Below are positions 1,846 through 43,259 of a stretch of 64,000 nucleotides of DNA, one piece after another. The notes under the pieces are model-generated. The model was given only the letters and a program-made list of their open reading frames with translations. It did not search any database and had not been told where the DNA came from. The stretch is from Octopus vulgaris. Lineage: Eukaryota. The stretch spans positions 73,780,001-73,844,000 of the forward strand of contig OX597825.1 of the NCBI GenBank assembly GCA_951406725.2. Reading direction: 5' to 3'. The translations under genes were made by a program, and so were the position numbers. Every line of letters begins with the position of its first letter. Position 1 is the first letter of the stretch.

Positions 1846-1898
1846 GAATTCGTCACTGAGAGGACCGCGTCAGGTCGAAACAATGTGTCTGGTGATTC
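1846..1898 (+). ncRNA. Degenerate type I hammerhead (N7 apparently deleted)
   Basis: GAAUUCGUCA-CUGAGAG-GACC(GCGUCA)GGUC-GAAA-CA(AUG)UG-UC-UGGUGAUUC. Flanking CGUUCAG (1834-1840) and CUGAACG (1908-1914) extend the stem. Confidence 0.5.
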
Positions 1899-3010
1899 AC
1901 CGGCGATCTGAACGATGCGCTGCATTTTGATACACAAATTTTCTTTAAAAGATTTTCTGTCGGACAAATTATTACAACTAGTGTCGTTTTAGCTTGATAA
2001 ATGTTATATACTAGTATCTTATACATACATACATACATACATACATACATACATACATACATATATTAAAAGAAATATACTTATGTAAATATAAATATAT
2101 ATGCATATTTATGTGTATGCACACATTTACATATATATATGTCCCTCTCTCTCTCTCTTTCTCTCTTGCTCTCGATTTCTCTTGCACTCCATATACGCGT
2201 ATATCTATATCATGTATACGTATATATATATATATATATATATATATATATATATATATATATATATATACATATACATATATATATACATACGTTTATA
2301 CGTATATATAAATATTTGTATATATATGTTATATGTTTGGAGAGATGGGGAGAGAGACAGAAAGAGAGAGAAGTAGAAAAAGAGGGAGTGTGCGTATGTG
2401 CATGTGTGTTCGTCTGTGTGTCTGTGAGTGTTGTGTGTGTGTGTGTGAGTGCTCGCATGTATATGTATCTATTTGCTTATGCTTTATTCTTCGCCAGCCG
2501 CCAGGCAAAGCATTAGATAACAAGCAAAAATCACACACACACACACACACACACAAACAGACAATTCTATTTGCGGTCGGCGCCTGACAGACCACTGATC
2601 CTAAGATGCACACTGACAATTGTCTCCTGACACAGACATTCGCAGCTCAGATACTAACACTCTTCTTGGCTAACACTCAGAATAATATCACCTACGGTAA
2701 AACTTGGCCGCCTGTATCAGTTGCATTCTTAACATGATTTCCACCATCTTGCTTTTATTCATTTATTTATTATTATTATTATTATCATTGATGCTCTTCT
2801 GATTGCATTTTACATCTCTTCTCAACTCCGTGACTCTTATCACGTGCGCTTTGTCACAATACGCACACACCTGTATACATATATACATATATATATATAT
2901 ATATATATATATATATATATATATATATATATGCATACACACAGATACATACAAATACACAAACACACACACACACACACAAACACACACATATACAGTC
3001 AAAAACATAT

Positions 3011-3054
3011 ACTTTATTGACAAGCCTACAAGCAGGGCGAAACGCGCTTGACGT
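3011..3054 (+). ncRNA. Degenerate hammerhead-like motif (U3-A8 core, U16.1 mutated)
   Basis: ACUUUA-UUGACAA-GCCU(ACAAGCA)GGGC-GAAA-CGCG-CU-UGACGU: expected ACGCGU palindrome has U>C; stem I imperfect. Confidence 0.35.
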
Positions 3055-4204
3055 TACCATGAACAAACTTCAACCACGATGTTTGTCTCACGATGTTAGT
3101 TCCACATATAAACTGTGTTTTTATCATGTCCATTAAGAGATTTTCTCTCTGACAAAACCATAGCAGCGTGCCCTTCTACGATGTATAGACGTTTATCAAC
3201 ATGCACAAATGTCTATATGTATATGGCCGTAGACTAATGACTGAAACAAATGAAATATGAAATATTTGTATGTGTATATGTATGTATGTATGTATGTATG
3301 TATAGGATCAGTGGTCTGTCAGGCGCCGACCACAAATAGAATTGTTTAGGGAAGACCGGTAGTCGCCCATGCATACCAACCTCTGCTCTCCACGCTACCG
3401 ATGAAAGGCAAAGGGGCCGATACAGCTTGGCACCAGTGACATTGCAATTCATTTCTACAGTTGATGAACTGGAGGAAACGTGAAATAACGTGTCTTGCTC
3501 AAGAACACAAAACACAGCCCGGTCCAAGAATCGAACTCACTAACTCAAGATTGTGAGCCCGACACACACACACACACGCACACACACCTGCATACACACA
3601 CACACACACACACACATACACCTGCATACAGACACACACACGCCTGCATACACCGACACACACATAATTTAGGTAACTTATGTATATATGTTTCAGACTG
3701 TGACAATTGAGTGTGACCACTCAGAATAGAACACTCAAAGACATGTCTGGAGAAGGTTTAATATGTAATCCCATGAGCGTTAGTCCGACAAATTTTTCGC
3801 CTGTGGTCCATCGGGAACTTCTTTCCTTCTTTTCATTTTGTCATGCGTACATTACAAATGAGGTCTTCTTAAACTGCTGTTTCTTAGTTGCCGATGAGTC
3901 ATAGGCGAAACGGAATATATCTCTTACCGGATTAACGATTATGGATTAAATATTATCTCTTCTTATCGTTTTACATGTTTCAGTCATTCGACTGCAGTCA
4001 TGCTGTGCCACCCGGTCATGCAGGGCTAGTATCAGGTTTTAAACAGATGTTCTAAGGTCTATTCATTCAATTATTATTTCCTCAAGGCATTGCCCCAGCA
4101 AGTTCATAGTATAATGACAGAATGAAGTATATATATATATATATATATATATATATATATATATATATATATATATTATATATATATATATATATATTAT
4201 ATAT

Positions 4205-39679: not shown

Positions 39680-39905
39680 CAGTTATCCCTCGCCATATCG
39701 AGGATCACTTATCACGGTTCACTTATCGCGGTTTATTATTTAAGCTTATGTCGATTCCGCTGTTGTTTTGCATTTATCATTAAATAAATATATACAAATT
39801 ATAAAAATGATTAAAAAAATATACAGGAGTGTTTCTACTTCGCGGTCTTTCACCTATCGCGAGGTGTTTTGAAACGAAACACCTGGGATAGTCGAAAGAT
39901 TACAA
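39680..39905. mobile_element. Degenerate pogo/Tigger-like MITE
   Basis: TA|cagttatccctcgccatatcg start with internal tatcgcgg motifs; degenerate right TIR gatagtcgaaagattac followed by TA. Confidence 0.5.
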
Positions 39906-42832
39906 TACACACACACACACCTACACATGTAACTGAGTACTTTTGGTAGACGGAAACTGAAAGAAGCCCGTCACACACATATATATATATATATATATAT
40001 ATATATATATACTTCCTCGTTCAGAGATTTATTATTATATTATATATATATATATATATATATATATATATATATACATATATATGTAAATCGGTGTTGG
40101 TGTGTTTACGTCCTCGAATCATAGTGGTTTGGCAAAAGAGAACGATAAGCCAAGTACTAAGCTTAAGAAATAAGCCCTAGGATCGGTTTCTTCGACTAAA
40201 AAAAAAGTTTAAAAAAAACCATTCTCGGGCTGTGTACTCCAGCATGGCCGCAGTCAATTGACTGAAACAAATAAACGAGTAAAAGAATAATACACCCTGA
40301 TTTTTGTTCTGCAGAACTGGAAGCAACAATGATGACGCCGACAACGATGACGCCGACAACGACGAAAAGACGATGGCGTCTGGCGACGACAACGATTGCG
40401 GCGGCGTTGACGACACGGAACTCGGACAGGAATCTCTCTGCAATCAACCCGCTGGCTAGAAATAGCAATGCCATACTGGATAGTGTTTATAGCTATACAA
40501 ATATCAGTGTTTCGAGTGACATTTCGTTGCTATTTCTAGCAGCTCGGGTGATTTCCAAGCGGCCTCTCCTTTCGTTGCTATTTCTAGCAGCTCGAGTGAG
40601 TGGTTACCCATCTCTTCGTTGCTATTTCTAGCAGCTCAAGTGATTACCTAGCGGCCTCTCCCTTGTGTTTCGGCGGCGTTGTTACTTTCTGTGTGTGTAT
40701 GTGTGTATGTGCATGTGTATGTGTATATTTATATATATGTATGTATGTATGTATGTATGTATGTATGTATGTATGCATGCATGAATATATGTATGTACAC
40801 ATGTATGTATTTATGTATGCATATGTTTATGTATATATTATCATAAATTCAATTATATATAGAACAGGCTCTCGCACACAGAACTATCTATCTATCTATC
40901 TATCTATCTATCTATCTATCTATCTATCTATCTATCTATCTATCTATCTATCTATCTATCTATCTATCTATCTATCTATCTATCTATCTATCTATCTTTG
41001 TGTCTATCTATCTATCTCCCTCTCTCAATCTATCTATCAACTTGTCGTCTGCCTGTTTATCTATCGATCAGTCTATCTGTCTGTCTGTCTGTCTTTCTGT
41101 CTTTTTATCTGTGTCTATCTATCTATCTATCTATCTATCTATCTATCTATCTATCTATCTATCTATCTATCTATCTATCTATCTACCTGTCTGTCTGTCT
41201 GTCCGTCCGTCCGTCAGTCTATCTACCTATCTATCTATCTATCTATCTATCTGTCTATCTATAACGTTGTGCGTTTGTCAATATTTATATGTATGTTTTA
41301 TATATGTTTATTGCTTCTGTTTATGAGAGCTTCTGCACGTGTCCGCTTGTATACTGTCCCTGTCTCTGTTTCTGTTTCTGTCTGTCTGTCTGACACTGTC
41401 TCTCTCTCTCTCTCTCTCTCTGTCTCTCTCTTTCTCTGTCTCTCTCTCTCTCACGCACACGCACATTTGCTCGCGCCCATATCCGTACAGACGCGCGCTC
41501 ACACAAATATGAATGTTTGTTTACATATGAGCGTTTGTATACACGCGTGTATGTGTGTGTATGTATTCGACTGTGTGTGTGTGTGTGTGTGTGTGTATCT
41601 CTGTGTGTGTGTATTTGAGCGTGTGTATTTGTCAATGTCTATGTACGGCTGTGTGTGCGTGTGTGTGCGTGTGTGTGTCTGCGTACGTAATTCTGTGTGC
41701 TCGAACGCGCGCGCGAGCGTCTCTGCGTATCATGCCAGTTACGATCGATATTTCTCTGTTGCAGTGTCTGCAAGAAGTTCTGGAATTATGGAACTTTGGT
41801 AAACTTTTTGCTGCTGAGAAATGTAATCGCTAGTTGCGGGACGTTGCAAAGTTTGTTTTGTGGACGAATACAGTTTAGACCGAGCGGAGAAGGAAGGAAG
41901 GATGGGAGGGACCGCGAAAGCCGTGGTCACCAGTTCGCGTCACGCTAATGCTAAAATCTAAGGAATCTATTTCTTTATTGCCCAGAAAGGGGTAAACACA
42001 GAGAGAACAAGCAAGGACAGACATTGGTATCAAGTCGATTACATCGACCCCAGTGCGTAACTGGTACTTAATTTATCGACCCCGAAAGGATGAAAGGCAA
42101 AGTCGACCTCGGCGGAATTTGAACCCAGAACGTCGCGCACCAACGCCATCACCATCATCAACATCAACATGTGGAGAAAACTGAAGTGGCCAGCATAGTA
42201 ATATGTATGTATGTCCGAGACGAGCGAATGTGCGTATGTTTGTGTGTGTGTTTTGGCGTAGCGTGCATGCGCTTATGTGTGCGCATGCGTGATTACGCAG
42301 GTGTTGATGTCTTTTTTTTTCTTTTTTCCTCTCCTTTTTTGTTTTTGTTTGTTTTTTTTTTGTTTTTGTTTGTTTTGTTTTACAAGAATGGTAAAAAGAT
42401 CGAAAGAGTAAGGAATAAATTATTCTAAAATATATCAGTGAAAACGAACGGATCGAACGAAAAAGGAAACGAACGAATAATCTAGAGAAACGCCCAGTAA
42501 ATATCGCAAAATATTACAAAAAAACCCCCAGAAAAACAAAATAGAAAACACATGTCTCTGTTATATAGATGTGTGTGTGTACGCGTGAGTGTATATATAT
42601 ATAATATAATATAATATAATATAATATAATATAAAATAATATAATATAATATAATATAATATAATATAAAATAGTATAATATATATATATATATATATAT
42701 ATATATATATATATATATATATATATATATATCCGGAGTAAACACATAAATGTGAAACAAGGTGGAAAAAAAGAGTACTCAAATAGCAGTGGTAGAGTAA
42801 TATGCTTTATTTAAAGCAGCAGAAAATTCAAC

Positions 42833-42880
42833 AAAATCTGTTACTCTGAGTTTCTCGTTGCCGTTCATCAGACAGTTTTT
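42833..42880 (-). ncRNA. Type I hammerhead ribozyme within an inverted repeat
   Basis: Minus strand AAAAACUGU-CUGAUGA-ACG(GCAA)CGA-GAAA-CUCAGAG-UA-ACAGAUUUU: intact core, GNRA-capped stem II with an A.A mismatch at its base, palindromic ACUC-A-GAGU stem III, GUA site. Confidence 0.7.
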
Positions 42881-43259
42881 GCTAGAAAAACTCAGAGTAA
42901 CAGATTTTGTTGAATTTTCTACTGCTTTAAATAAAGTATATATATATATATATATATATATATATATATTCCTACATGTATAACATATATATATGTGAAT
43001 GGGGGGGGGGGGAGAGAAAGAGATAGATTGAATTTTTTGGGTGTATATAATATTTAATAATATAAAAAAAAAGCTGATGTGACACGTTTTCCATTTATTT
43101 TCGTTTATAATTTGTGTATTGTTGTTTGTAATGAGACGTGTAGTTCAATTGTGGGTAACCGCAATTTTTTCTCCTACTATTGTTACTGCTAATACTACTA
43201 CTACATACACACACACACACACACACACACACACACACACACAGATACACACTCATACA

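Follow-up and report, generated by a model that had tools for sequence, protein, structure and literature searches.

Hammerhead ribozyme motifs in an SK-channel intron of Octopus vulgaris probably derive from eight dispersed families of Penelope-like and retrozyme-type repeats

The window, a stretch of 64,000 nucleotides of Octopus vulgaris DNA (contig OX597825.1, positions 73,780,001 to 73,844,000), contains eight motifs resembling type I hammerhead ribozymes, all within one intron of an SK (KCNN) channel gene. They are named here by their window positions: 1846, 3011, 3887, 6594, 25912, 36569, 38891 and 42833. Judged by homology, no two come from the same repeat family, and all eight families are dispersed. 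The motifs are very probably eight independent insertions of these families: two are truncated tips of Penelope-like elements (PLEs) that carry open reading frames (ORFs), a third is probably of the same kind, and four are ORF-less retrozyme-type units likely copied by PLE reverse transcriptase (RT) from circular or uncut tandem RNA. A role in the SK gene is not likely. A sequence-only reading of this DNA had attributed the motifs to the pseudo-long terminal repeats (pLTRs) of PLEs and to retrozymes from several retroelement families, and this attribution is borne out by the repeat-family homology.

The same reading had placed most motifs in short unique islands. However, all eight islands have relatives across the genome, from 26 to 2341 first-look candidates, figures that are not copy numbers. 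The 6594 island gave 2341 candidates in its own genome (best non-self identity 95%), 25912 gave 1717 (96%), 36569 gave 1594 (86%), 38891 gave 1201 (81-91%) and 42833 gave 971 (95-98%). The corresponding figures were 51 (72%) for 1846, 30 (70%) for 3011 and 26 (78-87%) for 3887. The loci described below are the best hits, with at most 40 candidates scored per query, a choice biased to long, similar and young copies.

The unit containing 6594 has the features of a retrozyme: it is ORF-less, falls within 150-450 bp (361 bp), has a GC content below 50% (44%) and bears a type I hammerhead. The window copy is 94-95% identical to the best other copies. Among 33 loci of the family, the 3' end runs directly into the 5' start with a period of 361 in 16, and an inverted 5' piece is present in 19 (20 with L012, judged by eye). 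The 3' end lies at about position 317 in six loci and at 336 in one; in the other 26 it is at about 361 or slightly further on, and six inverted pieces likewise end at 317-318. The two preferred ends are about 45-55 nt from each other, a pattern like that of the paired RT start sites by which the PLE tail is defined (PMC11167929). In none of the 33 loci was a linked ORF found, the one exception being a 77-aa RT fragment close to L003. The hammerhead of the window copy has a helix I of 6 bp, a helix II of 4 bp and a helix III of the form A-CUAG-U, with the predicted cut between 6600 and 6599, and the core UUGAUAA recurs in 24 of the 27 true instances listed for the family. This cut corresponds to about unit position 140, and nearly all copies span it; since they read through the cut site, their template would have been a circle or an uncut multimer. 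Two hammerheads in tandem, 360 nt apart, were found by exact pattern search at one locus (L163), and the window copy is not a tandem. From this anatomy, PLE-driven spread of the ORF-less 361-nt unit appears probable. Four contig sets guessed to represent RNA, examined on a junction-bearing copy, gave family pieces, a dip at the hammerhead and a 358-nt contig of about one unit at less than 90% identity. They were not used because contigs cannot show ends, strand or level.

By their end-to-start junctions with single hammerheads, the 36569, 1846 and 3011 copies are probably non-LTR retrozyme-type units as well. Junctions occur in L017, L019 and L024 of the 36569 family (period about 535), in L044, L046, L049 and the window copy of the 1846 family (period 314-322; in the window, 1649-1674 is repeated at 1963-1988) and in L056 and L062 of the 3011 family (period 326-339). 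No PLE ORF was present among the open frames listed in the 1.5-kb flanks of these loci. The 36569 family (L014-L027) also has a long helix II insert with a second GAAA and a TCGGTA segment able to pair with the CUGA box, possibly an off-conformation; a similar TCGG segment occurs in the 25912 family. Elsewhere in the SK introns, inverted pairs of older 6594-like elements lie at about -106,300 to -106,600 and about -19,800 to -20,050 in window coordinates, and a hammerhead of another family near -105,700, on the antisense strand, passes the strict descriptor given below.

The sequence-only reading took all the motifs for small ORF-less elements. This holds for several families, but 42833 and 25912 appear to be truncated tips of ORF-bearing elements. 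Judged from the frames linked to them, their parents are PLEs with RT plus a GIY-YIG domain at the C-terminus, upstream of the hammerhead repeat. The 42833 copy consists of an inverted arm (42888-42937), the hammerhead (42833-42879) and an unduplicated tail (about 42725-42800). When the tail alone was used as query, the inverted arm was found in at least 21 of 30 loci, with varied breakpoints. One locus, L192, reaches 750 bp further upstream, and the upstream untranslated region (UTR) copies found with its UTR are 99% identical. In 9 of the 20 loci found with the family UTR, a same-strand PLE ORF ends about 1.0 kb before the hammerhead; this ORF comprises an RT end with YRDD, a Cys-rich linker and a GIY-YIG-type endonuclease. 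In L221, an ORF start follows the tail. The possibility was considered that 42833 is a fixed fold-back miniature inverted-repeat transposable element, as a two-arm query had favoured identical hairpins. It was rejected because the tail-only query gave varied breakpoints and longer copies leading to the ORF. Just upstream of helix I, a TTCTAG sequence (L192:1430-1450; window 42880-42888) is the break or inversion point in many copies of the family. It looks like a 3' splice site of the kind that has been described in the Penelope element of Drosophila virilis.

In the 25912 family, L088 and L102/L183 show a GIY-YIG-type ORF, UTR and island in order, and their 5' end bears an inverted copy. Inverted copies end at query position 115 and direct copies reach 196. 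The Pfam GIY-YIG match was weak for L088 (E 0.0055) and absent for L183. Both this and the 42833 family bear the signs of PLE insertion, namely 5' truncation, an inverted copy next to it and a tail confined to one end, and the CxC-x5-CPLxGxC linker of their parents is of what we take to be the 'Nematis-type'. The 38891 copy is probably also a PLE 3' tip. The copies of its family have a CA-rich stretch of 550 bp or more in common upstream, and in one of 20 loci with 3-kb flanks (L238) a broken RT/partial GIY-YIG frame joins the shared UTR. The genome further contains many intact 781-aa RT and GIY-YIG ORFs with their own U3-A8 hammerhead pLTR. They are seen in the young family L133-L142 (e.g. 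L133:1745-4087); L137 has a second open frame of 479 aa upstream on the same strand, which is unusual for single-ORF PLEs. Ties between the islands and the 781-aa and 574-aa PLE families were discarded, as they came down to a 28-bp likeness of the tails or to separate insertions, and those families have other pLTRs.

The 3887 family has a U4C core, a 3-bp helix II and a long helix III, and no ORF link was found for it. An inverted partner of the window copy holds a ninth, decayed motif on the sense strand that was absent from the sequence-only reading. The coordinates of all features are given in Table 1.

Table 1. Features of the window as classed by sequence comparison; sense and antisense are relative to the SK gene.
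Feature	Position	Strand	Remarks
Retrozyme-type unit, 331 of 361 bp, 6594 copy	6378..6708	-	sense; 3' end in (TA)n tract
Inverted 31-bp piece of 6594 unit at its 5' end (PLE-type inversion)	6708..6738	+	
Intact type I hammerhead of 6594 copy	6594..6636	-	core UUGAUAA (U3-A8) at 6630-6624
Part of probable ORF-less unit of about 535 bp, 36569 copy	36455..36775	+	antisense; hammerhead 36569-36619
Old, probably ORF-less unit of about 315 bp, 1846 copy	1649..1999	+	antisense; hammerhead 1846-1898
Old unit of about 330 bp, 3011 copy	2999..3218	+	antisense; hammerhead remnant 3010-3056
5'-truncated 3' tip of young autonomous PLE in (TA)n, 42833 copy	42725..42937	-	from tail-only query and ORF-bearing relatives
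5'-truncated 3' tip of autonomous PLE, 25912 copy	25795..25990	-	hammerhead 25912-25981
3' tip of older repeat, probably PLE 3' UTR, 38891 copy	38888..39020	+	antisense; hammerhead 38891-38936
Old repeat, 3887 copy	3848..3956	+	antisense; hammerhead remnant 3884-3935
Inverted partner of 3887 copy, with ninth decayed hammerhead (3780-3820)	3709..3819	-	sense
Open frame with coding exon 1 of SK (KCNN) channel gene	45399..49705	-	all motifs in the following intron

These structures suggest a common route of insertion. AT-rich DNA, in many cases (TA)n, would be nicked by a PLE protein, and complementary DNA would begin downstream of the hammerhead, at either of two internal sites; nicking and two internal start sites have been described for a lizard PLE (PMC11167929). 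An early stop with fold-back would leave short copies with an inverted 5' piece, the structure seen in the loci. On ORF-less units, as the junction copies show, copying continued past the end of the unit into its start and across the cleavage site; such a passage would require a circular or uncut multimeric template. Inserted copies would then decay, as seen in five of the eight. The hammerheads themselves, as the literature suggests, would act as dimers in the tandem transcripts of the parents and not in solo copies.

The core had been described as kept among the motifs. CUGANGA is indeed found in 36569 and 42833, but the other six read differently. The 6594 and 3011 cores are UUGANAA (U3-A8 covariant), and those of 3887 and 38891 are CCGANGA (U4C), which is the family state; for 38891 it is the type of 19 of 24 instances. 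The 25912 core, UUGAAGA, has a U3.G8 mismatch and an altered helix II, while 10 of 11 other copies have CCGAAGA. The 1846 core is CUGAGAG, altered at positions 8 and 9. In 3011, U16.1 is replaced; in 3887, U16.1 is lost and the cleavage triplet changed; and in 36569, about 25 nt are deleted, including the 5' strand of stem II. The 42833 copy agrees with its family majority (core 40/52, helix II segment 39/52), yet its helix II has 2 bp. By comparison with their families, five of the eight window copies (1846, 3011, 3887, 25912 and 36569) are judged to be damaged. The full set of type I features (C3-G8 or U3-A8, G5, A6, A9, G12-A14, A15.1-U16.1, H17 and three helices) is present among the window copies in 6594 only. 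U4C lowers activity in vitro and is tolerated in a viroid (PMC3088659). It is the majority core in three unrelated families (25912, 38891 and 3887), and because CpG decay would yield canonical CUGA from it, U4C looks ancestral. The 42833 family is very young and has an atypical 2-bp helix II. This pattern suggests that catalysis is relaxed in autonomous PLEs, in contrast to the canonical motifs of ORF-less units.

The SK-channel matches correspond to the C-terminal part of a long minus-strand frame (45341-49705), the best named ones being a partial SK protein (99%) and an Argonauta protein (97%). A splice donor, GTAAGT, lies at 45398 on the minus strand, and tblastn of the window and the adjoining 200 kb placed coding exon 2 at about -102,840 and exon 3 at about -198,400 in window coordinates. 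With this donor and the next coding exon about 102.8 kb to the left of the window, all eight motifs are within one intron of about 148 kb for which the minus strand is sense. Three of the eight (6594, 25912 and 42833) are sense. When the window and the adjoining 200 kb were searched with four PLE proteins by tblastn, no PLE ORF remnant was found, in agreement with the earlier statement that no RT/GIY-YIG ORF adjoins the window copies.

Insertion density was compared by running profiles of the eight families on the intron, the next intron and 20 arbitrary places. The rest of the SK intron contained 7 insertions in 102.8 kb (6.8 per 100 kb), the next SK intron 5 in 95 kb (5.2 per 100 kb) and the 20 places 15-16 in 200 kb (7.5-8 per 100 kb). 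Over the whole SK intron there were 15 insertions, against about 11-12 expected; 7 were sense, 7 antisense and 1 ambiguous. Matches passing the strict descriptor numbered none in the rest of the intron, one in the next intron and two in the 200-kb sample. Neither the family profiles nor the descriptor indicated enrichment in the SK intron and, with density and orientation at background, there is no SK-specific signal. The motifs show neither mark of domestication, a single copy or enrichment at the locus. They are likely ordinary insertions without a role in SK-channel expression. Extrapolation from the 200 kb suggests some 2x10^5 remnants of the eight family profiles genome-wide.

Several observations weigh against this interpretation. 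No autonomous partner is tied to the 6594, 36569, 1846 or 3011 units, and a short PLE RT fragment lies near one of the 33 loci of the 6594 family. A single exact-motif tandem of 6594 was found, so the source array was not located. The 3887 family is assigned to neither the PLE tips nor the ORF-less class. Loci taken from the top BLAST hits favour long, young copies, and the strand counts are small. Eight insertions fall within the 45 kb of intron in the window, a density inflated because the profiles were built from those same eight. Moreover, 6594 is intact and sense, with mean pair probabilities of 0.96 and 0.99 for helices I and II, so some cutting is possible.

It is conceivable, although the less likely course, that the ORF-less units are short, internally deleted PLE tandems transcribed by read-through, with no RNA circles and with the hammerhead as a passenger. 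Uncut multimers would explain the junction copies equally well. Hammerhead activity was dispensable for the lizard PLE in vitro (PMC11167929), and 8 of 9 Xenopus retrozyme dimers were without cleavage (bioRxiv 10.64898/2026.07.22.740005). However, canonical helix sizes are kept in the 6594 hammerhead, and helix II has a compensatory change in 3 of 15 aligned copies (the overall covariation term, +0.68, is not favourable). Furthermore, the 360-nt unit folds well as a circle, with a z of -5.7 against mononucleotide shuffles, a lenient control, and its size and GC content match those of circle-forming mussel and axolotl retrozymes.

Improbable, in turn, is the proposal that 6594 cuts SK pre-mRNA often enough, whether co-opted or incidentally, to modulate splicing or mRNA level. 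Its canonical type I fold sits at the tip of a long predicted helix and holds once the transcript extends 20 nt beyond the cut (P 0.64-0.75), and the family core is conserved; cleavage by this single intact sense copy is thus possible as modelled. However, helix III, with one pair and a palindromic tetraloop, is by analogy of the dimer type. The axolotl HHR_Amex1, with the same helix III type, is a poor cutter as a monomer (6% in 1 h; PMC7229834). No full same-family partner of 6594 occurs in 264 kb, where its nearest relatives are 70% fragments, and the copy is an ordinary family member in an intron without strand bias. Splicing still took place in mammalian cells when the intron had been cut by a hammerhead (as cited in PMC2995048). 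The other two sense copies are predicted to be unable to fold. For 42833, the stem I probability was at most 1e-12 at every transcript length tried, and 0.17 for a natural family copy without the adjacent arm; the motif is predicted to be buried in a hairpin because the 50-bp arm is transcribed ahead of it. Helix II was not formed in the predicted folds of 25912 and 36569. Because the region has no same-family sense tandem and a single cut cannot yield a circle, release of small or circular RNA from here is not expected. The suggestion that the sense motifs cut the intron or release such RNAs therefore finds no support, on four counts: no enrichment, no strand bias, two of three copies predicted unfoldable and no sense tandem.

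Marginally less credible still is a reading in which octopus retrozymes are circles that Penelope RT has scattered as thousands of solo hammerheads dependent on dimers, and in which free retrozyme RNA uses the ACUAGU palindrome to pair in trans with sense copies in introns, 6594 among them, and triggers their cleavage. If trans-pairing were true, a mobile RNA would be a trans-acting cutter of many neural pre-mRNAs, including that of the SK channel.

It was also considered whether AT-rich repeat DNA had produced most of the motifs by chance resemblance. All eight sites can be read as a hammerhead-like topology. A strict type I descriptor passed 6594 and 36569; these 2 compare with a mean of 0.12 over 25 local dinucleotide shuffles. 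A second descriptor, which tolerates U4C and demands a 3-bp helix II opened by G, passed 6594 and 38891 (2 against 0 in 10 shuffles). With one core mismatch allowed, the relaxed descriptor found 4 motifs against 4.2 in shuffles, which is chance level, and relaxed counts were set aside as evidence. No Rfam hammerhead was present among the 150 of 419 matches listed for the window, in 6500-6720 searched alone or, at the gathering score, in 10 loci; the listed matches were noise of microRNA models on (TA/TG)n. Pattern counting alone supports only three of the eight sites (6594, 36569 and 38891); the others are established by homology, in that the motif is kept in further copies of their repeat families. 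As every site has homologues elsewhere with an equal or better hammerhead, chance resemblance is the least probable explanation of all and appears largely refuted, most weakly for 3011 and 3887.

Upstream of the conserved SK N-terminus, the frame at 45770-49705 (-) encodes about 1,300 aa of Ser/Thr/Gly/Pro/Gln-rich low complexity with no stop and may be a very long N-terminal extension; a piece at 49403-49459 is 89% identical over 19 aa to the N-terminus of a bivalve SK protein. The window also contains a 26-bp minisatellite of about 26 copies (9338-10000), three tandem copies of 184 bp resembling short interspersed elements (28754-29305) and, judged by eye, an RT C-terminus fragment like that of long interspersed elements (56850-57248, +).

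Functional intronic ribozymes, such as the amniote ultraconserved HH9/HH10 and CPEB3, are single-copy and conserved across species. The sense-strand octopus motifs resemble them as self-cleaving-type motifs within a large intron of a neural gene, but are members of repeat families at background density. Dimer-cleaving PLE variants were reportedly described by Lunse et al. in 2017. The kinds of motif found here are already known, and they are ordinary at the SK locus; for the SK gene itself the finding is probably without consequence.

The closest counterparts are the minimal hammerheads found in the pLTRs of metazoan PLEs (Cervera and De la Pena 2014, PMC4209133). They are alike in type I topology with a tiny palindromic helix III, in the extra base between positions 9 and 10.1 and the U3-A8 variant, in high diversity within a genome with mostly solo motifs from truncated PLEs, and in some opposite-strand pairs 100-700 bp apart. 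The octopus differs in having three families with U4C as the family state, and a 42833 family with a 2-bp helix II and no G10.1-C11.1. No octopus data were found in the accessible main text of that paper; its supplements and those of PMC8557442 may list cephalopod motifs. A search for reports of hammerheads in octopus Penelope elements, or of cephalopod retrozymes, covering sources other than subscription papers and supplements, brought up PMC8557442 only, and the word 'ribozyme' is absent from the main text of an octopus repeat-annotation paper (PMC13282606). In the order of RT, Cys-rich linker and GIY-YIG, the parents of 42833 and 25912 resemble those endonuclease-bearing (EN+) PLEs whose linker has a Zn finger (Neptune/Nematis; Craig et al. 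2021, PMC8557442). These elements and non-autonomous derivatives such as MRC1 share the 5' truncation, inverted 5' copy, optional tail and microsatellite targets; Chlamys elements, the group of MRC1, are mostly without canonical hammerheads.

The non-LTR retrozymes of metazoans (Cervera and De la Pena 2020, PMC7229834; Li et al., bioRxiv 10.64898/2026.07.22.740005) are like 6594 in being ORF-less units of 300-400 nt with a canonical type I hammerhead, in coexisting with PLEs and in the spread of solo monomers over chromosomes. Mobilisation of animal retrozymes by PLE machinery has been argued in these papers from co-occurrence and homology; neither 'inverted' nor 'tail' is used of retrozyme insertions in their main texts as accessible. 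The 6594 family consists mostly of scattered 1-1.5-mers that carry PLE inversions and end at two 3' positions, and not of long arrays. As near-identical intact PLE ORFs are present in the same genome, a matched in vitro test is within reach. The new detail, as read from these copies, is that an octopus retrozyme unit with no ORF shows the insertion anatomy of PLEs; no earlier account of this turned up in the literature searches or in the main texts of the two retrozyme papers. It should be useful to the transposon and ribozyme field, in that 6594 displays PLE marks (inversion, two 3' ends and TA targets) on an ORF-less unit apparently copied through its own cleavage site.

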